Sequence record: AP019521.1
Strand: one strand, 5' to 3'
DNA from: Escherichia phage KIT01
Length of the DNA stretch: 64,000 nt
The translations under genes were made by a program, and so were the position numbers. A model generated the notes under the pieces. That model did no database searches, was not told the DNA's origin, and was given only the letters and a program-made list of their open reading frames with translations. Positions 4,757 to 50,543 of the stretch are shown one piece after another. Position 1 is the stretch's first letter, and the number at the start of each line of letters is the position of its first letter.

Positions 4757-5311
4757 TCAATTCTTATAGAATCGGAACGGGTTTACGTGGAAGGCTAACA
4801 TAGCCTTAGGGATTTTACGAGACAAAAGACTCTTAAGTTTCCAACCGCAGTATACTCGTAGGTAAAAGGTAATCCCACCAACCTTAAGATATGGAACCGA
4901 AGCAAAGACTCCCCAGGCGTCGTCATTCCACATCCATAGCCACCCATGATGAGCTTTATCAGGAGAACCTGATTCCACATCGGGATTACCACGATAATGG
5001 AATTCTGAGCTACAATCACGGCCGAGTTTATGGTAAGCAAAGTTATAAGCTTTATTTCGCCACAACCAGGCTACTCGTTGAAGGTATATGCCTAAAGGTA
5101 GTTTTCTTATTTTAGCCCAACGTTTAATGTGACCTTTATCACCGTCAATTGGATTATCGTATGTCATCATCCAATCAAAGCCGTACGGCAATTTACCAGT
5201 CTTTTTATTGTGGAAAGGAACTACAAAAGGTGCAAGGATAACAGCCAGAACCATAGAGATAAAATCTAGTGGGACCAACAGAACCCAACTCAAATATTTT
5301 AAAAGTTTCAT
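4757..5311 (-). CDS. hypothetical protein with N-terminal hydrophobic segment
   Basis: 184 aa; late promoter TATAAATA at 5338-5345 and same upstream cassette as the IPIII-like gene. Confidence 0.45.
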   Translation of the reverse strand: MKLLKYLSWVLLVPLDFISMVLAVILAPFVVPFHNKKTGKLPYGFDWMMTYDNPIDGDKGHIKRWAKIRKLPLGIYLQRVAWLWRNKAYNFAYHKLGRDCSSEFHYRGNPDVESGSPDKAHHGWLWMWNDDAWGVFASVPYLKVGGITFYLRVYCGWKLKSLLSRKIPKAMLAFHVNPFRFYKN

Positions 5312-39800: not shown

Positions 39801-41360
39801 ATGAAAAAGAATGCATTAGTTCAAAAATGGTCCGCTCTGCTGGAAAACGAAGCCCTTCCTGAAATCGTGGGTGCTTCTAAACAAGCTATCATCGCTAAAA
39901 TTTTCGAAAACCAGGAGCAAGACATCCTGACTGCTCCGGAATACCGTGATGAAAAAATCTCTGAAGCATTTGGTTCTTTCCTGACCGAAGCTGAAATCGG
40001 TGGTGACCACGGTTATGATGCTACCAATATCGCAGCTGGCCAGACTTCTGGTGCTGTAACTCAGATTGGGCCGGCAGTAATGGGTATGGTTCGTCGTGCT
40101 ATTCCTCATCTGATTGCTTTTGATATTTGTGGTGTTCAGCCTCTGAATAACCCTACCGGCCAGGTATTTGCCCTTCGTGCAGTTTATGGTAAAGACCCTA
40201 TCGCTGCTGGCGCTAAAGAAGCTTTCCATCCGATGTATTCTCCGGACTCTATGTTCTCTGGTCAGGGTGCTGCTGAATCTTTCGAAGCACTGGCTGCAAG
40301 CAAAGTTCTGGAAGTTGGTAAAATTTATTCTCACTTCTTCGAAGCTACCGGTGCTGCACACTTCCAGGCTGTTGAAGCCGTAACCGTTGATGCTGCTGCT
40401 ACTGATGCCGCTAAACTGGATGTTGCTGTTACCGCTTTGATTGAAGCTGGTAAGTTGGCTGAATTGGCTGAAGGTATGGCTACTTCTATCGCTGAACTTC
40501 AGGAAGGCTTTAACGGTTCTACCGATAACCCGTGGAACGAAATGGGCTTCCGCATCGACAAACAAGTTATCGAAGCTAAATCCCGTCAGCTGAAAGCAAG
40601 CTACTCTATCGAACTGGCACAGGACCTTCGTGCAGTACACGGTATGGATGCAGATGCTGAACTGTCCGGTATCCTTGCTACCGAAATTATGCTCGAAATC
40701 AACCGTGAAGTTATCGATTGGATTAACTACTCTGCACAGGTTGGTAAATCTGGCCAGACTCAGACCGTTGGTTCTAAAGCTGGTGTGTTTGACTTCCAGG
40801 ACCCGATTGATATCCGTGGTGCTCGTTGGGCCGGTGAGAGCTTTAAAGCCCTTCTGTTCCAGATTGATAAAGAAGCAGCCGAAATCGCTCGTCAGACCGG
40901 TCGTGGTGCTGGTAACTTCATCATCGCTTCCCGTAACGTAGTTAACGTACTGGCTGCAGTTGATACTTCTGTAAGTTATGCAGCTCAAGGTCTGGGTCAA
41001 GGTTTCAACGTTGACACAACCAAAGCAGTATTTGCCGGTGTTCTTGGTGGTAAATATCGCGTTTACATCGACCAGTATGCACGTTCCGATTACTTCACCA
41101 TCGGTTATAAAGGCGCTAACGAAATGGACGCAGGTATCTACTACGCTCCGTACGTTGCACTGACCCCGCTGCGTGGTTCCGATCCGAAGAACTTCCAACC
41201 GGTAATGGGCTTCAAAACTCGTTACGGTATCGGTATCAACCCGTTCGCTGACCCGTCTGCACAGGCTCCTACCAAACGTATTCAGAGCGGTATGCCTGAC
41301 ATCGTTAACAGCCTTGGTCTGAATGGTTACTTCCGTCGCGTATATGTTAAAGGTATCTAA
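39801..41360 (+). CDS. 23: gp23 major capsid protein
   Basis: 519 aa; long stretches identical to recalled T4 gp23 (e.g. SKQAIIAKIFENQE, YAPYVALTPLRGSDPKNFQPVMGFKTRYGIGINPF, FRRVYVKGI). Confidence 0.98.
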   Translation: MKKNALVQKWSALLENEALPEIVGASKQAIIAKIFENQEQDILTAPEYRDEKISEAFGSFLTEAEIGGDHGYDATNIAAGQTSGAVTQIGPAVMGMVRRAIPHLIAFDICGVQPLNNPTGQVFALRAVYGKDPIAAGAKEAFHPMYSPDSMFSGQGAAESFEALAASKVLEVGKIYSHFFEATGAAHFQAVEAVTVDAAATDAAKLDVAVTALIEAGKLAELAEGMATSIAELQEGFNGSTDNPWNEMGFRIDKQVIEAKSRQLKASYSIELAQDLRAVHGMDADAELSGILATEIMLEINREVIDWINYSAQVGKSGQTQTVGSKAGVFDFQDPIDIRGARWAGESFKALLFQIDKEAAEIARQTGRGAGNFIIASRNVVNVLAAVDTSVSYAAQGLGQGFNVDTTKAVFAGVLGGKYRVYIDQYARSDYFTIGYKGANEMDAGIYYAPYVALTPLRGSDPKNFQPVMGFKTRYGIGINPFADPSAQAPTKRIQSGMPDIVNSLGLNGYFRRVYVKGI

Positions 41361-41376
41361 GATATAACCTTATTAT

Positions 41377-41400
41377 GGGAGACTTCGGTCTCCCATTCTT
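41377..41400 (+). terminator. intrinsic terminator after gp23
   Basis: gggagac-TTCG-gtctccc followed by attcttgttt. Confidence 0.6.
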
Positions 41401-41409
41401 GTTTCTGTA

Positions 41410-41676
41410 CTATGCAATCTTAACTCGGCGGTTGATGATATCACGGAAGTCAATACGATTTTCTTGGATTTTCAGCCAGTTACCAGATTTGTCTTTGGTA
41501 TGGGTAGAGTATTCACCGTTCCACCAGAAGTCAGTTTCATAAGCCAGAGCTTCGTATTTCTTAACCAATGCATTAACTGCATTACCGTTAGGATTGGTAC
41601 CGAATTTTTCTACCAGAGCTTTGATGTCTTTGTCAAGGTTAGAAAGCGTGGTACGGATAAAGTTTAATTTGTTCAT
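41410..41676 (-). CDS. hypothetical protein between genes 23 and 24
   Basis: ORF 41410..41691 trimmed to ATG at 41676 behind GAGGAG; early-type promoter upstream. Confidence 0.45.
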   Translation of the reverse strand: MNKLNFIRTTLSNLDKDIKALVEKFGTNPNGNAVNALVKKYEALAYETDFWWNGEYSTHTKDKSGNWLKIQENRIDFRDIINRRVKIA

Positions 41677-41715
41677 TTTTAATCTCCTCATGTTTTGATA
41701 GGTCTATAGTAACAC

Positions 41716-41745
41716 GACGCTTTTTGTGTGTAAACCACTTTTATA
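41716..41745 (-). promoter_or_regulatory. sigma70 early-type promoter (cassette copy)
   Basis: GTTTACA ... TACTATAGACCTATCAAAAC upstream of 41410..41676. Confidence 0.5.
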
Positions 41746-41751
41746 AATAAA

Positions 41752-41759
41752 ATTATATT
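41752..41759 (+). promoter_or_regulatory. late promoter TATAAATA upstream of gp24
   Basis: exact octamer. Confidence 0.65.
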
Positions 41760-41778
41760 CTCAATAAGGAAAATAGCA

Positions 41779-43059
41779 ATGGCTAAAATTAACGACCTTT
41801 TAAAAGAGTCGACCATTACTTCGAGTTCTTCGATTGGTCGTCCAAATTTAGTAGCTTTAACCAGAGCTACGACCAAACTTGTTTATACCGACCTTGTAGC
41901 TCAGCAGCGTACTAACCAACCTTTGGCTGCTCTATATGGTATCAAATATCTTACAGAAAAAGACGAATTATCTTTCCAGACGGGTGCTACTTATTCCGGC
42001 GCAGTATCCGCTAAAGACCGTGCCACTATCCCAGTTTTCACTGCAGGCGCTGTTTATGCTAAAGATGATTTGTTCCAATTTGAAAACGTAGTTTATAAAG
42101 CTTTGGTAGCAAGCCCATTTGCCGGTGCTACTGGTGATGAATACGAACAACTTCAAGAAGCTATTGTTAAGTTGACTATCCGTATTATGTCCGAAGCCGC
42201 ACTGACTGAGCGTTTTGAAGGTCCTCAAGAAGTAGATATCTCTGAAGCCAGATTCATCGTTAATAAATGGAACGCCCCGGTTAAATCACGTAAGTTGAAG
42301 AGTACTGTTACCGTAGAACTGGCTCAAGACCTCGAAGCAAATGGTTTCGATGCCCCTAATTTCTTGGAAGACCTCCTGGCTACTGAAATGGCTGATGAAA
42401 TCAACAAAGATATTCTTCAGTCCCTGGTTACGGTTTCCAAGCGTTATAAAGTTGAAGGTTTGTGTGATGATGGCTTAATTGACCTGAGTTATGCTAACTC
42501 ACCGGAAGCTTCTCGCAAGCTTTATGAATTGGTGTGTGAAATGGTTTCTCATATCCAGCGCGCAACCTCTTATACGGCAACTTATGTAGTAGCGAGTACT
42601 CGTGTAGCTGCTGTTCTGGCTGGTTCCGGATGGTTGAGACATACCCCACAGAACGACAAATATCTTTCTGCAAGTGCATACGGATTCCTGGAAAATGGTT
42701 TGCCTCTGTATTGTGATACCAACACGCCGATTGATTATGTTACTGTAGGTGTTAAAGAGGAATTTGGTGGGAAGGAAGCGGTAGGTTCTCTGTTCTATGC
42801 ACCGTATACCGAAGGCCTTGATTTGGCTGACCCTGAACATGTGGGTACATTTAAAGTGGTCGTTGACCCTGAAAGCCTGCAACCATCTATTGCATTAATG
42901 GTTCGTTATGCACTGGCTGCCAACCCTTATACGGTTACTGCTGATGATAAACAAGCCCGTATTATTGATGCGACTAATATGGATTTGATGGCGGGACGTT
43001 CTGATATGTCCGTATTGCTTGGTGTGAAACTTCCTAAAGTTTTGACTGAATTAAACTAA
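41779..43059 (+). CDS. 24: gp24 head vertex protein
   Basis: 426 aa (T4 427); gp23-like fold motifs; late promoter 41752-41759. Confidence 0.95.
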   Translation: MAKINDLLKESTITSSSSIGRPNLVALTRATTKLVYTDLVAQQRTNQPLAALYGIKYLTEKDELSFQTGATYSGAVSAKDRATIPVFTAGAVYAKDDLFQFENVVYKALVASPFAGATGDEYEQLQEAIVKLTIRIMSEAALTERFEGPQEVDISEARFIVNKWNAPVKSRKLKSTVTVELAQDLEANGFDAPNFLEDLLATEMADEINKDILQSLVTVSKRYKVEGLCDDGLIDLSYANSPEASRKLYELVCEMVSHIQRATSYTATYVVASTRVAAVLAGSGWLRHTPQNDKYLSASAYGFLENGLPLYCDTNTPIDYVTVGVKEEFGGKEAVGSLFYAPYTEGLDLADPEHVGTFKVVVDPESLQPSIALMVRYALAANPYTVTADDKQARIIDATNMDLMAGRSDMSVLLGVKLPKVLTELN

Positions 43060-43060
43060 C

Positions 43061-43087
43061 AAAAAAGGGACCTTACGGTCCCTTTAT
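43061..43087. terminator. bidirectional terminator between convergent gp24 and rnlB
   Basis: aaaaaa-gggacc-TTAC-ggtccc-ttt, A-tract and T-tract on either side. Confidence 0.7.
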
Positions 43088-43090
43088 CAT

Positions 43091-44098
43091 TTATTTGGAT
43101 ACTAATTCAATCCATACGGCTCGTAAGGTATCTTTTACGCACTCAACAAGCTGCTTTTTAACTTCAACAGGATTTTCTGCGTCGGTTAATTCTAATTCTT
43201 CACGGGCAGCTTCTTCAAGGATATCCTGGACTGTCAAGCCCATTACCTTTCCAAAATCCTTCGGCGATACTTCACCAATCTTACTGATGACATTGTTAAT
43301 GCGGTTAACAGTCACATAATCAGTGAATTGCCACATCAAATCCATATCATCTTGGGATAAAACCACTGCAACTTTAATAGGCTTATCAGACTTTTTCTTC
43401 TCGCTGAATTTAGAGTTCTTACATTTAATCGCTACACGATTTCCATTAGGAAGCCAGGTAGGAACATCAGGTTTCAGTACAAAGCCTTCAGCCGTGAATA
43501 CTTTACCTTCTACCTTAGGAATAAAGTCTGTCGAGTTTGCAATAGTTAAGCCAGCGTTATCCACTGCAAAATTATAATCGGGAACAACCGAATCAAAATC
43601 ATTAGGAAGTTTAATAAGGTCTTCAAAGCTACCAGTGGCCAGACATGGAGCTACCTTAAACTTATGAATAATACAGAAGGCTTCCATCAATGTATCGGTT
43701 AGAACAGATTCAGTACCGTCTTCCTTAGTAACTCGGATATCAAACACATAAAAGTCTTTATCACCGTAGTCCACATTCTTCTGAATACCTGTCCCAGCGA
43801 ATTCGCCATAAATCTGGTACGACTGGTAATTAATCGATTCAATTAGTTGTTGAACGGATTTAATAGAATCAGCATAGTTCTTAAGTACAATTTCATAACC
43901 ATAGAAATCTTCAGCAGGGAGAATTGGGCCAGTGCGCTTGGCGCATGTGACTGCGTCACGTTCTATGATTAAACTAAAGTTGGTTCCATGAATCTTCTCA
44001 CGTGCTACCCATTCACCGCCAGTCAAACCATTAGTACGGAGTTTTTCGATAAACTTATTGTTGTAGTGGTTTTCGAGACTGCTATATTTCTTGAACAT
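43091..44098 (-). CDS. rnlB: RNA ligase 2
   Basis: 335 aa; [54 protein letters not shown] nearly identical to recalled T4 Rnl2. Confidence 0.95.
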
Positions 44099-44185
44099 AA
44101 ATCACCATAATAAATATAATTAAATAGAAGAGCTAGTAATCTTCTGTCACCAAGCCAAATGGTTTAACGGAAGGACCTAGACCCA

Positions 44186-44213
44186 TTATAACACATCTAA
44201 ATTTAAAGCATAT
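44186..44213 (-). promoter_or_regulatory. middle-type promoter candidate (MotA-box-like TGCTTTA plus extended -10 TGTTATAAT) upstream of rnlB
   Basis: minus strand aaTGCTTTA-N13-TATAAT, about 90 nt before rnlB ATG. Confidence 0.4.
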
Positions 44214-44434
44214 TACTTTGAACTAGAACGCGCTTTGCGCCGAACCTTGTTGTTCAATCTTTTACGATAAACAACCTTTTCTTTCGATTTAAACTTGGCC
44301 TTGGCTTGTTCCACATCAACCCATGCTTTGGCCATGTCCTTAGCGGTACCACCTAATTTTTTAGCAATTTCTATAAAATTCAGTCCAGATTCGTGTAAAA
44401 AATGTACTTTAACCTTATCCATAACAATTCTCAT
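44213..44434 (-). CDS. small basic protein, possible helix-turn-helix
   Basis: 73 aa; GLNFIEIAKKLGGTAKDMAKAW then Lys/Arg-rich tail; early-type promoter upstream; no clear RBS. Confidence 0.35.
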   Translation of the reverse strand: MRIVMDKVKVHFLHESGLNFIEIAKKLGGTAKDMAKAWVDVEQAKAKFKSKEKVVYRKRLNNKVRRKARSSSK

Positions 44435-44491
44435 ATTAAGTGCGTAAATCTATACTACCATGAGAATTTTAACTTGTAAACAGGAAATTTT

Positions 44492-46054
44492 ATGGCACAA
44501 ACTACCGGTGAAAAAGAAGGCGTATTTTACGGTTATTCTCTTTATGATTTGAATAAAGAAAAACTAATAACCTTTGACGAATTACTTACAGGTATTAAAG
44601 GCGACGCTGGGGAAAATGGTGATATCGGTCCTCAAGGTCCTATTGGTTTACCTGGCCCGCAAGGTATCCAAGGTGAAGTTGGGCCTAAAGGTCCTAAAGG
44701 CGATATCGGTCTTCAGGGTATAGCAGGGCCTGCTGGTCCTCAAGGTCCACAAGGTGAACGAGGAATACAGGGCTTAACAGGACCACAAGGCCAAATAGGT
44801 ATTGCAGGGCCACAAGGCGTCAAAGGTGATACCGGTCCTCAAGGTCCTGTCGGCCCACAAGGTCCAGCAGGTGTACAAGGCGTACAAGGCGTCAAAGGTG
44901 ATACAGGTCCAGCAGGCCCTGCAGGTTTAACTTGGAAAGGAACTTGGGACTCAGCTACGGAGTATTCAATAAATGAAGCCGTAGGATATGGAGGTTCTTT
45001 GTATTTTGCTACAGAAACCGTGCCTGTCGGCGAAATCCCATCTTTAGCCTCCGACTATTGGGAAGTTTTGGCTACCGAAGGTCCAGAAGGTCCTCAAGGA
45101 CCACAAGGCATTCAGGGACCTATGGGTCCTCAGGGTATTCAAGGTCCTTTGGGTCCTGTAGGCCCGCAAGGTATCCAAGGACCAAGAGGCTTACAAGGAC
45201 CTGAAGGCGAAATAGGACCTCGTGGTTTGCAGGGGTTAAAAGGTGAAACAGGTGCTCAAGGACCGCAGGGCATTCAAGGGCTTAAAGGCGAGCCAGGGGC
45301 CCAGGGACCTGATGGTATTGGTTTAACTGGGCCTCAAGGACCAATTGGCCTTACAGGTCCAGCGGGCCCTCAGGGTATAAGAGGAGCCATAGGACCTAAA
45401 GGTGATACAGGTTTAACTGGTGCCCAAGGCGAGCAAGGTGCCCCAGGTGTTAAAGGTGATACCGGTCCTCAAGGATTACAAGGGGTTAAGGGAGATAAAG
45501 GGGATAAAGGAGATACTGGTGCCCAAGGATTACAAGGGGTTAAAGGAGATAAAGGAGACAAAGGAGATACCGCGCCTCATAATAAAGTATACTATTTAGG
45601 ACAAACCCCATGGTTCCACAACTCGTATGCTAAACATCAACTTCCAGGAACCAATGATTGGCGGATTACTGTAACAGGTACAACCAACTTTGAATCCTAT
45701 TCATCAGGTAACGTTAGAATAGGATTTTTTAATAATACTTCTGCATCCAGATCATGCACGTTTACATTGATTTCTTATGATGCTAACGGCTCACAGAAAA
45801 ATACAAAATACAATACTGTGCATAATGTTATGGTTCAAAGTTCTTATTATAAATTCTGGGGTGATAATGCCGATTCATTTATTATAGGCGGCACTTCTAA
45901 TATATGTGAAGGGTTTTTTACTGATAATGCCACCAATAAAACCTATCATATAAAATTTATAGGATTGGTCAAAGCCACAGCTACGGTACCAGGCAAATAT
46001 GTTCTTGAAGTTGAAGAGATTATTTCTGGTGGCGAACCTGTAAAATATTATTAA
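44492..46054 (+). CDS. collagen-like (Gly-X-Y repeat) protein with C-terminal globular domain
   Basis: 520 aa; two collagenous segments, each about 40 G-X-Y triplets ([13 protein letters not shown]..., [13 protein letters not shown]...), separated by a non-collagenous segment; about 160-aa Gly-free C-terminal domain. Confidence 0.85.
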
Positions 46055-46064
46055 TGGAGGTTGA

Positions 46065-46928
46065 ATGGAACCGGTACAAGCTATATTAGAGCCTGGCGTA
46101 ATAGATGTAGAATATGGTAATACTTATTCAGCAACAGTAACTCTAACTCCTATAGAAAATATCCCAGATGGTTCCGTGATAAGATATGATTGGGTTGTTA
46201 ATAACAAGTTTGTTGGTACGGGTGAAGCTACTCGTACCACCCAACCATCTCAGACCGGAAATTATGTGTTATCATGTAGAGTATTCATTACCCCGCCTAA
46301 TGAAAATACTGTAATGATAACAACTAATAAATCATATGGGTATGTATATAAAAATTCTGATACAAGTCCAGTAGATGCAGAAATATTATACGATAATAAA
46401 ATATACCAAATAGGGAGCAAAGTTAGATTATTAGCTACGGCTAATAACCCCGATACTAACTATGTTAAAGGTATTATATGGAAGGATGCTGACGGGAATA
46501 TAATAGGTATAGGGCGGGAATATATCCATACAATGCAATCTGAATATGATATAGTTCGTGCTAAAGTCACAATGGATTCGCCTACTAGAGATGAATTCAG
46601 TAAGAACTTTACCATACATTTATATGCTATAAATGTTCAAGAAGGAACTTGTATAAGATACATTCATCCTTTAGACCATCGGGATGCTGGATTTATCTGG
46701 TGCGGATGGTGGGTTATGGATGAAGTTCAACGAGCAGTAAAACTTGGATTGGATTGGAAAAATCCTGAAGGAACTGAGTTAAATTATAAATGTGATTTAG
46801 AAACACTGTCATTATTGCTCAAAACATATCCTGAAGCTGAAGTTCAGGAATCAAGGCACGGGCATATAATAACCAGACCGCAAATTGAGTCCGGTGAAAT
46901 ATATGAAAAGCCATATGAAGTAAAATAA
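46065..46928 (+). CDS. Hoc-like protein (paralog): Ig-like N-terminal region plus Hoc-type capsid-binding C-terminal domain
   Basis: 287 aa; C-terminus YIHPL..FIWCGWWVMDEVQ..DWK..YPEAEVQESRHGHII matches Hoc C-terminus YVHPL..YIWCGWWVMDEIQ..DWK..YPEVDVQESRNGYIV in the same window. Confidence 0.8.
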   Translation: MEPVQAILEPGVIDVEYGNTYSATVTLTPIENIPDGSVIRYDWVVNNKFVGTGEATRTTQPSQTGNYVLSCRVFITPPNENTVMITTNKSYGYVYKNSDTSPVDAEILYDNKIYQIGSKVRLLATANNPDTNYVKGIIWKDADGNIIGIGREYIHTMQSEYDIVRAKVTMDSPTRDEFSKNFTIHLYAINVQEGTCIRYIHPLDHRDAGFIWCGWWVMDEVQRAVKLGLDWKNPEGTELNYKCDLETLSLLLKTYPEAEVQESRHGHIITRPQIESGEIYEKPYEVK

Positions 46929-46954
46929 AAAAGGGACCTTACGGTCCCTTTTAT
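46926..46954. terminator. bidirectional terminator between convergent Hoc-like gene and hoc (identical hairpin to 43061-43087)
   Basis: aaaaaa-gggacc-TTAC-ggtccc-tttt. Confidence 0.7.
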
Positions 46955-48085
46955 TTATGGATAGAAATAAATTATTCCTGCCTCCAATGAGGTTTTGTGT
47001 ACGATATATCCATTACGAGATTCTTGTACATCAACCTCTGGATAGTCGGTAATCATTTTTTGAAGTGTATATCGGTGCAAATAATACGGGCTATCCGGGT
47101 CATCGGTTTTCCAGTCTTTGCCTTCAAGAGTCATTTTCTGGATTTCATCCATAACCCACCATCCACACCAGATATAAGCTGAATTGCGAACTGGCAATGG
47201 ATGTACATAAGGTAATTCACCATCTGGAACTGGTGCGACTTTAGCCGTGACTGTCACATTACCGGTTTTGGTAACGGTCGCAGGGTTATAATCAGTCGCC
47301 GAAACCACAACAGAAACTTCAATAACCTGTGAACCTTCAGTGTTTGTATCGATTGCTAGAGTATCTGTGGTACCAGCAATACCAATGCCATCTTTCTTCC
47401 AAGAATAAGCAAAAGTGGCACCACTAGGCGCACCTGCTACGGTAGCTTTAAAAGAAGCCGGAGTTCCTTCAGGTACATTAATAGAGGCTGGCGTTAAATT
47501 AACAGAAACCCCAGACATTGTTTTCTTAACAAAAGAAACCGTTATGCCTTTAGCAGCAGTTGCTGAACCGTATTCCGGAGAGGTAACAGTAACTTCACAA
47601 TTCAAGGTATAATTTGCTTCGGCTGCTTCAGTTAGTGTAATAGTTTTAGAGGTTTGGCCTGAAATTACGGTGGTATTTCGTTTCCAAACATAATTAATTG
47701 TTGCATCAGCAGGAGCACCGGTTACATTAGCCGTAACAACTTGGGATTGGCCGACTTCTTTAGAAACGGAAGTAGGGTCCAAAGCCAAAGAGATATCCAT
47801 AGTTTTATTAGATACGGTAACTTCAAAGGTGTCTTCGGCTGTCTCAAGAGGGCCCGCATCGCCAGGGTCAGAAGTTACTACTACTTTTATAACTTTCTTA
47901 CCCGCAGGAGCAGCACCCGTATATCTCAAAACATTAGTGGTTTCTGGGTTAGCAGCTCCATCAACGGTCCATACATATGCAATGGTTCCCCCTGTTACAA
48001 CTGGGTCGGTTGCGGTAGCAGTGTAATTAGCGCTTTCGCCTATTTTCATAGACGCTGCGCCGGCTATACTTACAGTAAAGGCCAT
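46955..48085 (-). CDS. hoc: Hoc highly immunogenic outer capsid protein
   Basis: 376 aa (T4 376); Ig-like repeats; C-terminal GNVTVTAKVAP..GELPYVHPLP..IWCGWWVMDEIQKMT.EGKDWKTDDPDS matches recalled T4 Hoc. Confidence 0.95.
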   Translation of the reverse strand: MAFTVSIAGAASMKIGESANYTATATDPVVTGGTIAYVWTVDGAANPETTNVLRYTGAAPAGKKVIKVVVTSDPGDAGPLETAEDTFEVTVSNKTMDISLALDPTSVSKEVGQSQVVTANVTGAPADATINYVWKRNTTVISGQTSKTITLTEAAEANYTLNCEVTVTSPEYGSATAAKGITVSFVKKTMSGVSVNLTPASINVPEGTPASFKATVAGAPSGATFAYSWKKDGIGIAGTTDTLAIDTNTEGSQVIEVSVVVSATDYNPATVTKTGNVTVTAKVAPVPDGELPYVHPLPVRNSAYIWCGWWVMDEIQKMTLEGKDWKTDDPDSPYYLHRYTLQKMITDYPEVDVQESRNGYIVHKTSLEAGIIYFYP

Positions 48086-48094
48086 AGTTTACCC

Positions 48095-48772
48095 TTATTT
48101 TAAAGTGACAAAAGATGAATTACGCGTTTCACGTACTAATACTGAGCCATTACGATTGATGTAATAAATCAGACTGAATAATGTTTGGTGGGCTGAAGGA
48201 TGTTGGAAATCTTTAGGACGTTCTTTCCAATCAGGGGTTTCAGAAATCCATTGATAAATCCACCAAGGAACAGTACAGTAACCTGGGTTTTTACCAATAA
48301 GCAAAAGATTGGGACTAAAGTTTTCAGGGAGTTCAAATTTAGGTTTTTCTGATTCTTTAACCAAGGTTATAGCTTGATTGAATTTCTCTTCGACAAACGG
48401 GACATCCTCTTCAATAATCTCTACCTTAGGAAGTTCGGCTACCTCAACGACTTCAACAACTGCCTCAGGAGCATCGAACAACAGGGTGGCTTCTTCTTTA
48501 GCCGGTTCAGCACCATCAACAAATTCGTTAGCACCATTGAGTTCGTCGGCAGCATCAATCAAATCAGAAATAGACAAACCTTCGGTTTCCGGAAGTGGTT
48601 CGTCAGCCAAGGCTTTAAGACCTTCAGTGATATTGATAATCAAATTATCAACCGAACGGGTTTTCTTAAGTTTTAAACCGAACTGTTCACCGTATTCGAT
48701 TAACTTAGCTTTAGCTTCTTTTTTATCTTCGAGTGCACGAAGCTCTTCAATATATTGATGGTCCATAATCAT
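48095..48772 (-). CDS. inh: Inh-like protein (inhibitor of prohead protease), by position and size
   Basis: 225 aa (T4 Inh 226); immediately upstream of hoc on the same strand; minus-strand late promoter at 48801-48808. Confidence 0.55.
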   Translation of the reverse strand: MIMDHQYIEELRALEDKKEAKAKLIEYGEQFGLKLKKTRSVDNLIINITEGLKALADEPLPETEGLSISDLIDAADELNGANEFVDGAEPAKEEATLLFDAPEAVVEVVEVAELPKVEIIEEDVPFVEEKFNQAITLVKESEKPKFELPENFSPNLLLIGKNPGYCTVPWWIYQWISETPDWKERPKDFQHPSAHQTLFSLIYYINRNGSVLVRETRNSSFVTLK

Positions 48773-48786
48773 TCTCTTTTCTAGTG

Positions 48787-48808
48787 TATAAATATAACTA
48801 TATTTATA
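48787..48808. promoter_or_regulatory. divergent late promoters (plus 48787-48794 for uvsW; minus 48801-48808 for inh/hoc)
   Basis: two exact TATAAATA octamers back to back. Confidence 0.6.
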
Positions 48809-48822
48809 ACTGAGAATTACTT

Positions 48823-50319
48823 ATGCAAATTCAAGTACATTTTGATAATTTTAGTCATGTTCGTGTTGAATGCGATGAATCTACATTCTACGAACTCAGA
48901 GACTATTTTAGCTTTGAAGCTGATGGATATAAATTCAACCCTAAATTTCGTTATGGGCAATGGGATGGACGTATTCGTCTTCTAGATTATAACCGTAAAC
49001 TGCCTTATGGACTCGTCCCTCAAATTAAAAAGTTCGCTGAACAATTTGAATACTCTCTGTGGATTGACCCACGTATTCTTGAACAGGAAGATATTTCTCG
49101 TGAAGATTTTGACTCATGGGTGGCTTCTCAAGAAATTTATTCAGGGTCTACCAAGATTGAGCCGCATTGGTATCAGAATGAAGCCGTATACAACGGCCTG
49201 ACAAAACGTCGCGCAATTCTGAATTTACCTACATCCGCAGGTAAATCATTAATCCAGGCACTCCTGAGTCGATATTACGTTGAGAACTATGAAGGTAAAA
49301 TCCTCATCTTAGTTCCTACTACTGCACTTGTCGACCAGATGATTAATGACTTCATCGATTATCGTTTGTTCCCTAAAGCCGCAATGCTTGGTATTCGTTC
49401 AGGTACCGCTCGTGATTCTGATGCAATGATTTACGTTTCGACTTATCAAACTGCTATTAAGCAACCTAAAGAATGGTTTGCTCAGTTTGGTATGTTTATG
49501 AACGACGAATGCCACTTGGCTACAGGTAAATCTATTTCTACCATCATCGAAGGCCTAACCAACTGTATGTTTAAATTCGGTTTGTCTGGTTCTTTAAAAG
49601 ATGGTAAAGCTAATTTAATGCAATATATGGGTTTGTTTGGTGATGTGTTTAAGCCAGTATCCACCTCCCAGTTAATGGAAGAAGGACAGGTTACAGACCT
49701 TAAAATCAACAGTATTTTCCTTCGATACCCGGACGAATTCACCGTTAAAATGAAAGGTAAAGATTACCAATCAGAAATTAAAGTCATTACTAAGGCTACT
49801 CGTCGTAATAAATGGGTTGCTAATTTAGCTGTTAAACTCGCTAAGAAAGAAGAGAACGTATTCCTGATGTTTAAAAACATTGAACACGGTAAAACTCTTT
49901 TTGAAATGGTTAAAGAGCAACATAAAGAAGTTTATTACGTATCAGGTGAAGTTAATACCGAAACGCGTAATGCTCTGAAAGTAATGGCGGAAAATGGTAA
50001 GGGTATTATTGTTGTGGCAAGTTATGGTGTGTTCTCTACTGGTATTTCCGTTAAGAACCTTCACCACGTTGTATTTGCCCATCCAGTAAAATCTAAAATC
50101 ATTGTACTCCAGACAATTGGTCGTGTACTCCGTAAACATGCCTCTAAATCAACAGCACAGGTGTGGGATATCATCGACGACATGGGTGTTAAGCCTAAAT
50201 CAGCTACGGCTAAAAAGAAATATGTTCATTTGAACTACGCCCTCAAACACGCTTTAGAACGTATTCAACGTTATGCTGATGAGAAATTTAATTACGTAAT
50301 GAAACAGGTGGATTTATGA
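48823..50319 (+). CDS. uvsW: UvsW helicase
   Basis: 498 aa; DECH box FMNDECHLATGKS, helicase motifs LPTSAGKS and QTIGRVLR. Confidence 0.9.
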   Translation: MQIQVHFDNFSHVRVECDESTFYELRDYFSFEADGYKFNPKFRYGQWDGRIRLLDYNRKLPYGLVPQIKKFAEQFEYSLWIDPRILEQEDISREDFDSWVASQEIYSGSTKIEPHWYQNEAVYNGLTKRRAILNLPTSAGKSLIQALLSRYYVENYEGKILILVPTTALVDQMINDFIDYRLFPKAAMLGIRSGTARDSDAMIYVSTYQTAIKQPKEWFAQFGMFMNDECHLATGKSISTIIEGLTNCMFKFGLSGSLKDGKANLMQYMGLFGDVFKPVSTSQLMEEGQVTDLKINSIFLRYPDEFTVKMKGKDYQSEIKVITKATRRNKWVANLAVKLAKKEENVFLMFKNIEHGKTLFEMVKEQHKEVYYVSGEVNTETRNALKVMAENGKGIIVVASYGVFSTGISVKNLHHVVFAHPVKSKIIVLQTIGRVLRKHASKSTAQVWDIIDDMGVKPKSATAKKKYVHLNYALKHALERIQRYADEKFNYVMKQVDL

Positions 50320-50543
50320 AAACCTTTAAAGAAGTTATTCAGGAAGCATCTATTGAAAGCTTCATGGCTAAAATTGGTTCTTGTCAGACTATGGATGGTC
50401 TGAAGGAATTGGAAAAGTATTACAAAACTCGTAGTAAGGAAGCCGAACTTCGTGATTCGGACGATATTAGCGTGCGTGATGCATTGGCTGGTAAGAGAGC
50501 TGAATTGGAGTCGATGGACGACGAGGAAGAGGAAGATTTCTAA
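50316..50543 (+). CDS. uvsW.1: UvsW.1 small acidic protein
   Basis: 75 aa (T4 UvsW.1 76); overlaps uvsW stop by 4 nt. Confidence 0.7.
   Translation: MKTFKEVIQEASIESFMAKIGSCQTMDGLKELEKYYKTRSKEAELRDSDDISVRDALAGKRAELESMDDEEEEDF

Follow-up and report, generated by a model that had tools for sequence, protein, structure and literature searches.

Two copies of a 25-nt hairpin element, AAAAAAGGGACCTTACGGTCCCTTT, were found at positions 43061-43085 (HP1) and 46927-46951 (HP2) of the window, by which we mean the whole 64-kb stretch of DNA analysed, with no third copy identified within it. Judged from their sequence and setting, both are very probably ordinary factor-independent bidirectional terminators situated between convergent transcription units of a T4-like phage with a Dhakavirus backbone, and the hairpin pair is as such ordinary. 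The proposal that the hairpins form the edges of a swapped block of genes is not supported at this locus by the sequence comparisons, and the identity of the two copies is not special (Table 1).

Table 1. Features of the gp24-hoc locus, with positions given on the window.
Feature	Position	Strand	Description
Late promoter TATAAATA of gp24	41742-41749		
gp24, head vertex protein	41779..43059	+	
Hairpin copy 1 (HP1)	43061..43085	.	A6-GGGACC-TTAC-GGTCCC-T3; bidirectional intrinsic-terminator-like; between gp24 (+) and rnlB (-)
rnlB, RNA ligase 2	43091..44098	-	Pfam RNA_ligase 4e-20, T4_Rnl2_C 5e-19
Late-promoter-like AATAAATA, candidate cassette promoter	44109..44116	+	Antisense to gp24.3; putative
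gp24.3-like small protein, 73 aa	44213..44434	-	DUF2774 7e-30; also by annotation
Putative sigma-70-like early promoter, gp24.3/rnlB	44452..44480	-	TTTACA-17-TAGTAT, with TG; consensus match, predicted function
Variable block versus backbone relatives MX01, IME08, JS98 and SP18	44491..47009	.	Holds cassette, HP2 and hoc tail
Collagen-repeat (tail-fibre-like) protein, 520 aa	44492..46054	+	Collagen 4e-43; first gene of cassette
Hoc-like paralogue, 287 aa	46065..46928	+	tblastn: Hoc C-terminus, 41%; second gene of cassette
Hairpin copy 2 (HP2)	46927..46951	.	The 25 nt of HP1 again; between 287-aa Hoc-like gene (+) and hoc (-)
hoc, 376 aa	46955..48085	-	Last 18 codons (46955-47009) within variable block

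The initial annotation had described the element as occurring twice, at the ends of a segment running from rnlB to the Hoc-like gene. Both copies were located there, and the gene content between them, with rnlB and the collagen/Hoc-like pair, agrees with that description. The core of the repeat is the 16-mer GGGACCTTACGGTCCC, which occurs exactly twice in the 64 kb (43067-43082 and 46933-46948), a count equalled by none of 100 dinucleotide shuffles; together with an A6 tract upstream and T3 downstream it makes up the 25 identical nucleotides. Beyond these the copies diverge (TTTATCATT versus TTTTATTTA), and local alignment of the flanks alone gave similarity at the level of shuffled sequence (P=0.39 on the left, P=0.26 on the right). 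The repeat is accordingly limited to the hairpin and the adjoining A and T tracts. A wider repeat extending through the last codons (GAATTAAACTAA versus GAAGTAAAATAA) was considered and rejected, with shuffled sequences matching equally well and each end being ancestral to its own gene. A second pair of hairpins with one common stem was also observed in the window, at 2540 and 41377.

The two copies are direct repeats lying 3.87 kb apart around non-essential genes, an arrangement that could point to the remnants of a segmental duplication or to a mobile element bounded by direct terminal repeats. Such an origin is extremely improbable and is contradicted by the present data: the similarity is confined to the 25-mer, a transposase or integrase gene was not found between the copies, relatives without the cassette possess both hairpins at these sites, and the stretch with rnlB and gp24.3 runs colinear with the backbone in phage MX01.

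Each copy was found to possess a stem of 6 bp (GGGACC/GGTCCC) closed by a 4-nt loop, with A-U pairs lengthening the stem to 9-10 bp. On the minus strand the loop of both copies is GUAA (GNRA-type) and is accompanied by six U residues 3’ of the stem, while on the plus strand the loop is UUAC and the U-tract is shorter (UUUA for HP1 and UUUUA for HP2). RNA folding of the copies gave energies of -14.7/-18.5 and -15.6/-16.0 kcal/mol (z-scores of -3.1 to -6.1), no more than one in 200 shuffles being as stable, and both copies were detected by a terminator scan. A search against Rfam returned sub-threshold matches only, these being due to the terminator hairpin. The stop codons of converging genes frame each copy, with gp24 ending at 43059 and rnlB at 43091 around HP1, and the 287-aa gene ending at 46928 and hoc at 46955 around HP2. 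The resulting gaps of 31 and 26 nt are filled by the hairpin, leaving no space for other elements. The earlier suggestion that the element serves as a bidirectional terminator of convergent transcripts is consistent with all of these features, namely the stable stem, the U-tracts on both strands and the converging stops, and it is from this anatomy that we infer termination itself.

RNA polymerase arriving from either side would transcribe the GC stem first and a run of U residues after it. The rnlB and hoc transcripts (minus strand) would carry a hairpin with a GUAA loop followed by six U residues, and the gp24 and cassette transcripts (plus strand) a hairpin with a UUAC loop followed by three to four. 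Because the minus strand offers a GNRA loop and six U residues as opposed to three to four on the plus strand, termination is probably more efficient for the rnlB and hoc transcripts than for those of the plus strand, for which the short U-tracts (UUUA/UUUUA) may make it leaky. The hairpins probably also protect the 3’ ends of the mRNAs.

The putative early promoter of gp24.3/rnlB includes AACTTGTAAACAGGA, which forms the conserved left boundary of the variable block. For the plus-strand cassette an exact TATAAATA was not found, the sole candidate being AATAAATA at 44109, at the equivalent place of which phages VR26 and SP18 possess a perfect TATAAATA. At the DNA level, the closest relative of the 520-aa collagen gene was identified in VR26 (about 74%), and the 287-aa Hoc-like gene shares 84.5% identity with that phage. 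The literature was also searched for mapped terminators and for earlier accounts of the collagen/Hoc-like cassette, and nothing directly relevant was found.

It had further been suggested that such identical repeats could serve as exchange sites for the cassette running from rnlB to the Hoc-like gene. Alignment of the locus across related phages revealed that the cassette boundaries do not coincide with the hairpins. Between 41001 and 44490 phage MX01 is colinear with the window at 95.5% identity, uninterrupted across HP1, and the variable block begins on its left side at 44490/44497, at the gp24.3 early promoter. The right edge was found inside hoc at 47009/47010, where identity to MX01, SP18 and IME08 rises from 50-70% to 93-100%, thus placing HP2 within the variable block and not at its edge. 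By the refutation test set in the initial annotation the exchange idea fails, because the boundaries of the variable block lie elsewhere. In SP18 and P479 the cassette was lost through a deletion internal to it, leaving a scar that is not at a hairpin. Two scans of IMG/VR for a possible source of HP2 together with the hoc tail returned no exact match, and the best identity among the phage collection was 75-76%.

A broader possibility is that the hairpins are linkers for homologous or template-switch recombination, by which DNA between or beside them is excised, inserted or exchanged, and thus a promoter-less analogue of the promoter-early stem-loop (PeSL) regulatory cassettes of T4-type phages (Arbiol et al. 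2010, PMC2839356; Comeau et al. 2014, PMC4122927). A PeSL consists of a stem-loop immediately followed by an early promoter of sigma-70-like type, behind which lie a Shine-Dalgarno sequence and the start codon of the gene that comes next (PMC4122927), and PeSLs mediate deletion and mini-circle formation in phages RB49 and phi1, with indels described for PST/T4 and nt-1/KVP40 (PMC2839356, PMC4122927). The stem-loop consensus of nt-1 (A3-4G3-loop-C3T3-4) is similar to the hairpin of the window. However, the crossovers of PeSLs were located outside the stem-loop, in the interval from the -10 box to the ATG, and the hairpins of the window lack a promoter part. At the locus itself, IME08 has a tail-fibre-like gene, together with a GGGCC-GCAA hairpin of its own, inserted directly before the 3’ end of rnlB, with homology to the window restarting at the stem base of HP1, and the plus-strand cassette adjoins the hoc terminator in all of its carriers. 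The IME08 insertion is non-discriminating, however, as breakpoints at gene ends are expected under any model. In distant Acinetobacter phages gp24 and hoc are directly convergent with rnlB not between them, as an excision between linkers might leave them, but the hairpin at that junction is unrelated, and a synthetic query of the gp24-hairpin-hoc junction (1069 matching phage records) identified it in no enterobacterial phage. With neither edge of the block at a hairpin, MX01 colinear through HP1, the SP18/P479 scar inside the cassette and a repeat of only 25 nt flanked by sequence without homology, a role as recombination linkers is very unlikely.

Relatives whose RnlB is as little as 52% identical still keep the GGGACC stem at the gp24/rnlB junction, and the hairpin was observed at this position in Dhakavirus, Gaprivervirus, T4-type and more distant phages. 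Likewise, relatives possess a hairpin 3’ of hoc whether they carry the plus-strand cassette or lack it. Among 14 distinct close genomes, four hairpin types were identified at HP1 and five at HP2, with about three common types in circulation, each found at both sites across the clade. The sequence AAAGGGACC-N4-GGTCCCTTT was found in at least 120 stretches of IMG/VR viral contigs; among the matches listed, 101 lack gp24, rnlB, hoc and inh in their vicinity and nine have the GTAA/TTAC loop. The phages of this group would appear to rely on a very limited repertoire of near-optimal terminator sequences, in which a GGGACC or GGGCC stem is combined with a loop of GNRA or UUCG type that may face either way. 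We infer that the two copies are identical because this pool is very small, with the hoc terminator of the window presumably happening to be of the same type as the resident gp24/rnlB terminator.

HP2 could instead have been made identical to HP1 by short-patch gene conversion or template switching between the two palindromes in the lineage of the window. Such concerted evolution, which would involve the terminators but not the mobility of the cassette, is conceivable although rather unlikely. GGGACC-GTAA/TTAC is the usual type at HP1 in Dhakavirus, but a survey of 18 close relatives showed GGGACC-GTAA at the hoc site in the window alone. The identity of HP2 to HP1 extends to orientation and A-tract length (A6), and the core of HP2 differs from that of VR26, the nearest cassette relative, even though both have GAAGTAAAATAA as the adjoining 3’ end of the coding sequence. 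SP18, VR25, VR26 and P479 also possess the same hairpin type at both sites, and the presence of all three common types at both sites could mean exchange between the sites and not convergence. Furthermore, loops were found to be flipped in close relatives with identical stems (GCAA/TTGC, CGAA/TTCG, GTAA/TTAC and GTGA/TCAC), 4-nt inversions which show that these palindromes undergo rearrangement at the DNA level. On the other hand, concordance within genomes was not significantly above chance in a permutation of the 14 distinct genomes, whether types were matched exactly (three seen against 1.5 expected, P=0.17) or up to a loop flip (five against 3.1, P=0.15), and several of the concordant genomes are closely related to each other. 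In four further Dhakavirus genomes the types at HP1 and HP2 were discordant in all cases. The occurrence of the same sequence in unrelated phages means that convergence suffices, and there is no flanking homology that could act as a guide for conversion. It is less likely still that the GGGACC/GGGCC palindromes of Dhakavirus and Gaprivervirus are active as DNA, with loops inverting, cores being copied between sites through template switching or short-patch conversion, and occasional crossovers of a gene plus its terminator, as in IME08. Such activity would account for the occurrence of all three types at both junctions, and would make the palindromes a counterpart of PeSLs that lacks a promoter and lies within a region of structural genes.

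Read as terminators, the hairpins give the 3’ limits of four transcription units and aid the annotation of a plastic head-decoration locus. Their practical value is small and their main use is as a negative result: this conspicuous pair of identical repeats around variable genes is not the recombination boundary, the real breakpoints being in a promoter region and in the hoc coding sequence. Should the minority reading of the hairpins as linkers be true, it would extend the PeSL idea, that of regulatory motifs as recombination linkers, to bare terminators in a conserved structural module, and would be of moderate interest to specialists in phage genome evolution.

Hairpins with UUCG and GNRA loops in the intercistronic regions of T4 were reportedly described by Tuerk and colleagues in 1988. 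The two copies resemble the bidirectional intrinsic terminators of T4-type phages and their hosts in their A-tract, GC-rich stem, tetraloop (GNRA-type on one strand) and T-tract, and also in their site directly after converging stops, at junctions that are conserved in relatives. The sole oddity is the 25-nt identity between two terminators that are neighbours. Their likeness to PeSLs lies in a repeated A3-4G3...C3T3-4 terminator, one copy of which adjoins a hyperplastic stretch, and the linker role proposed for PeSLs corresponds to the exchange suggested in the initial annotation. Unlike PeSLs, they have no attached sigma-70 promoter, Shine-Dalgarno sequence or start codon (a promoter scan identified no site adjoining either copy), they lie between converging and not tandem genes, and they measure only 25 nt. 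Two copies are present in the 64-kb window; PeSLs form a multi-copy family of conserved sequence across the hyperplastic regions of a genome. The local breakpoints also lie outside them, the sole exception being the IME08 insertion that abuts HP1. Inversions of hairpin loops at short inverted repeats have been described for the non-coding DNA of chloroplasts, and the present case is alike in that the stem stays constant while the 4-nt loop is reverse-complemented in close relatives. It differs from the chloroplast case in that the hairpins here are predicted terminators, so that a flip would shift the GNRA or UUCG loop to the other transcript.

The two hairpin copies HP1 and HP2 were found to be identical over 25 nt (AAAAAAGGGACCTTACGGTCCCTTT; 43061-43085 and 46927-46951), with the A and T tracts included, which bears out the initial annotation as to an identical hairpin at two sites. 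The core GGGACCTTACGGTCCC lies at 43067-43082 and 46933-46948, with no third site in the 64-kb window even when two mismatches were allowed, and its match count was reached by none of 100 dinucleotide shuffles. Alignment of the 60-nt flanks of HP1 and HP2 gave scores no better than shuffles (P=0.39 left, 0.26 right); the repeat therefore consists of the hairpin and its A/T tracts only.

Folding of the RNA gave -14.7 kcal/mol (plus strand) and -18.5 kcal/mol (minus strand) for HP1, and -15.6 and -16.0 kcal/mol, respectively, for HP2, with at most one of 200 shuffles equally stable. In minus-strand RNA both possess a GUAA loop (a GNRA tetraloop) with six U after the stem, while plus-strand RNA possesses a UUAC loop followed by UUUA or UUUUA. 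Both were detected by a terminator scan of the window, and an Rfam search returned no above-threshold match for the hairpins. They occupy gaps of 31 and 26 nt, each bounded by the stop codons of a convergent gene pair. HP1 and HP2 match bidirectional intrinsic terminators in every feature readable from sequence, and the proposal that they terminate convergent transcripts is supported by this anatomy and by conservation. A second pair of terminator-like hairpins with a common stem was identified in the window, with the loop flipped: GGGAGAC-CGAA-GTCTCCC (2540-2557) and GGGAGAC-TTCG-GTCTCCC (41377-41394), the latter directly past gene 23.

The phage is T4-like (Straboviridae), with 95.5% identity to Dhakavirus MX01 over 41001-44490 and 94.9% to Dhakavirus IME08 over 46921-50500. 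The gp24 gene is single in the window, MX01 and SP18, whereas JS98, JS10, IME08, VR26 and others possess two paralogues, 24a and 24b, in tandem directly ahead of HP1.

Genes and promoters around HP1 and HP2
Feature	Position	Strand	Remark
Late promoter TATAAATA, exact	41742	+	upstream of gp24
gp24	41779-43059	+	followed by HP1
rnlB	43091-44098	-	3' end faces HP1
DUF2774/gp24.3-like gene	44213-44434	-	
Sigma-70-like promoter	44480-44452	-	for gp24.3/rnlB; promoter scan
Collagen-repeat protein, 520 aa	44492-46054	+	
Hoc-like protein, 287 aa	46065-46928	+	followed by HP2
hoc	46955-48085	-	beyond it inh (-), then uvsW (+)
Late promoter TATAAATA, exact	48801	-	upstream of inh-hoc

No exact late promoter was found for the cassette formed by the collagen-repeat and Hoc-like genes, the sole candidate being AATAAATA (44109-44116, plus strand) in the rnlB-gp24.3 spacer, present in the window and other Dhakavirus. 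A perfect TATAAATA occurs at the equivalent place in VR26 (L002 3737) and SP18 (L006 4613). This late-promoter-like motif is directed antisense via gp24.3 to the cassette and is kept even in phages lacking the cassette.

The initial annotation had further proposed that HP1 and HP2 could act as exchange sites for the segment between them, from rnlB to the Hoc-like gene. The alignment with MX01 was unbroken over 41001-44490, with the HP1 loop flipped in MX01, and gp24, HP1, rnlB and gp24.3 thus form one backbone block. At the left edge, sequence is common to all relatives as far as the gp24.3 promoter's -35 region (AACTTGTAAACAGGA), with divergence after it at 44490/44497. At the right edge, 46920-47009 is only 40-87% identical to MX01, SP18, IME08 and JS10, and identity rises abruptly to 93-100% at 47010, within hoc and 18 codons before its end. 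These breakpoints define a variable block of 44491-47009 that contains HP2. The last 18 hoc codons (46955-47009) share only 50-70% identity with every Dhakavirus and Gaprivervirus relative and best match T4-type phages (~75%); they constitute a small mosaic patch at the end of Hoc that binds the capsid.

The closest relative of the cassette was found in Gaprivervirus VR26 (74% over the collagen gene, 84.5% over 46056-47210), in which homology continues past the hairpin position into hoc. No record in the phage collection covered 80% of the cassette (44492-46928), and its 520-aa collagen-repeat protein and second Hoc paralogue have no close counterpart there, the best being VR26 at 74-85%. An additional head-decoration fibre, on a Dhakavirus backbone, may be the product of this gene pair. 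SP18 (L006 ~5250-5285) and P479 (L007), both without the cassette, possess a ten-codon ORF, ATGCCAGGCAACGCTTGCCCAGTACCATAA, adjoining the hoc hairpin at the place equivalent to window 44489-46928, in which a tail-fibre-like gene start is fused to the final codons of a Hoc-like gene. The ORF is a deletion scar internal to the cassette, and shows that the cassette was ancestral in SP18 and P479 and lost through internal deletion. With MX01 colinear through HP1, this scar internal to the cassette, and edges at 44490/44497 and 47009/47010 that leave HP2 inside the block, the reading of the predicted terminators as cassette boundaries is not supported at this locus.

In IME08 a tail-fibre-like gene (L004 1087-2495), with a GGGCC-GCAA hairpin after it, is inserted between gp24b and rnlB, and homology to the window restarts where the stem ends on its 3' side. 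This insertion abutting HP1 fits the suggested exchange, but it is a single case that does not establish a hairpin-specific mechanism, since any model predicts breakpoints at gene ends. At the usual place of the cassette, ahead of its Hoc-like gene, IME08 retains a short remnant ORF (L004 3930-4009) that shares an N-terminal GHDGRG motif with the tail-fibre-like gene, which suggests relocation or independent acquisition of the latter. Short homologies can suffice for recombination in T4 (Singer et al. 1982, as cited in PMC2839356), and rare deletions between 25-nt direct repeats are therefore conceivable; no trace of one was found, and a synthetic query joining the gp24 3' end, hairpin and hoc 3' end returned no enterobacterial phage record with both halves adjacent. 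Directly convergent gp24 and hoc were found only in Acinetobacter phages such as Acj61, with ~63% identity and an unrelated hairpin. Shewanella phage Thanatos-1 has an RNA ligase gene between hoc and inh, indicating that the region is plastic at a deep level, with no bearing on HP1 and HP2.

Hairpins at both sites were compared among seven annotated loci, 31 from IMG/VR (found via RnlB) and four further Dhakavirus. At the gp24-rnlB junction, GGGACC-N4-GGTCCC was identified in Dhakavirus, in several Gaprivervirus, in T4-type phages (RnlB 72% identity), and also in phages with RnlB identity of only 52%, with loops of GTAA/TTAC, GTGA/TCAC, CGAA/TTCG or GAAA/TTTC. The hairpin 3' of hoc exists in relatives with or without the plus-strand cassette and is thus the ancestral hoc terminator. 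Here GGGCC-GCAA/TTGC is found in most Dhakavirus and in the VR phages, GGGACC-CGAA/TTCG in IME08, SP18, P479 and L014, and a different stem in JS10. Between close relatives the loop is reverse-complemented with stems unchanged at both sites (window 43073-43076, 46939-46942; L001 3566-3581; L002-L015, L161-L164): TTAC in the window, JS98, PSD9 and WG01 versus GTAA in MX01; TCAC in AnYang and JS10 versus GTGA in 04086; GCAA in VR25 versus TTGC in VR26; and CGAA versus TTCG (SP18 versus P479). Four-base flips are not explicable as point mutations, and imply that terminator loops have probably been inverted repeatedly at the DNA level.

The stem AAAGGGACC-N4-GGTCCCTTT occurs in at least 120 IMG/VR stretches. 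Many environmental contigs with it have a gp23/gp24-like capsid gene nearby (L044, L065, L081, L083, L084, L086, L099, L110, L114, L119, L136, L146, L151). Among the matches listed, 101 lack a neighbouring homologue of gp24, rnlB, hoc or inh, and loops are TTCG/CGAA in 46, GAAA/TTTC in 12 and GTAA/TTAC in nine; the window's own hairpin therefore recurs in unrelated phage contexts. Distant T4-like phages may favour the GGGACC stem for terminators that follow capsid genes.

Both sites carry exactly the same hairpin in three of 14 distinct close genomes, and the same up to loop inversion in five; permutation of the hoc-site hairpins gave expectations of 1.5 and 3.1 (P=0.17, 0.15), and the four extra Dhakavirus genomes were all discordant. 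There is thus no significant sign of concerted evolution of the two sites, and two draws from a pool of ~3 terminator types would match in about a tenth of cases. This non-significant concordance, the generic hairpin sequence and the non-homologous flanks favour convergence among a limited number of near-optimal hairpins. Occasional short-patch copying from HP1 to HP2 is favoured by GGGACC-GTAA/TTAC at the hoc site being unique to the window among genomes examined, by HP2 equalling HP1 of the same genome in both orientation and length of the A-tract, and by an HP2 core unlike that of VR26 while the adjoining coding end is common to both. Both convergence and copying are compatible with these data; whichever holds, HP1 and HP2 are predicted to be functionally ordinary terminators, a feature of an already known kind.

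The mechanism put forward in the initial annotation is already known from promoter-early stem-loops (PeSLs) of T4-type phages, composite elements of a stem-loop, sigma-70 early promoter, Shine-Dalgarno sequence and ATG that flank variable ORFs and whose recombination yields deletions and mini-circles, with mapped crossovers between the -10 box and ATG, outside the stem-loop (PMC2839356, PMC4122927). HP1 and HP2 share only the stem-loop part; they lack promoter, Shine-Dalgarno sequence and start codon, and their neighbouring genes converge. HP1 and HP2 were therefore rejected as PeSLs.
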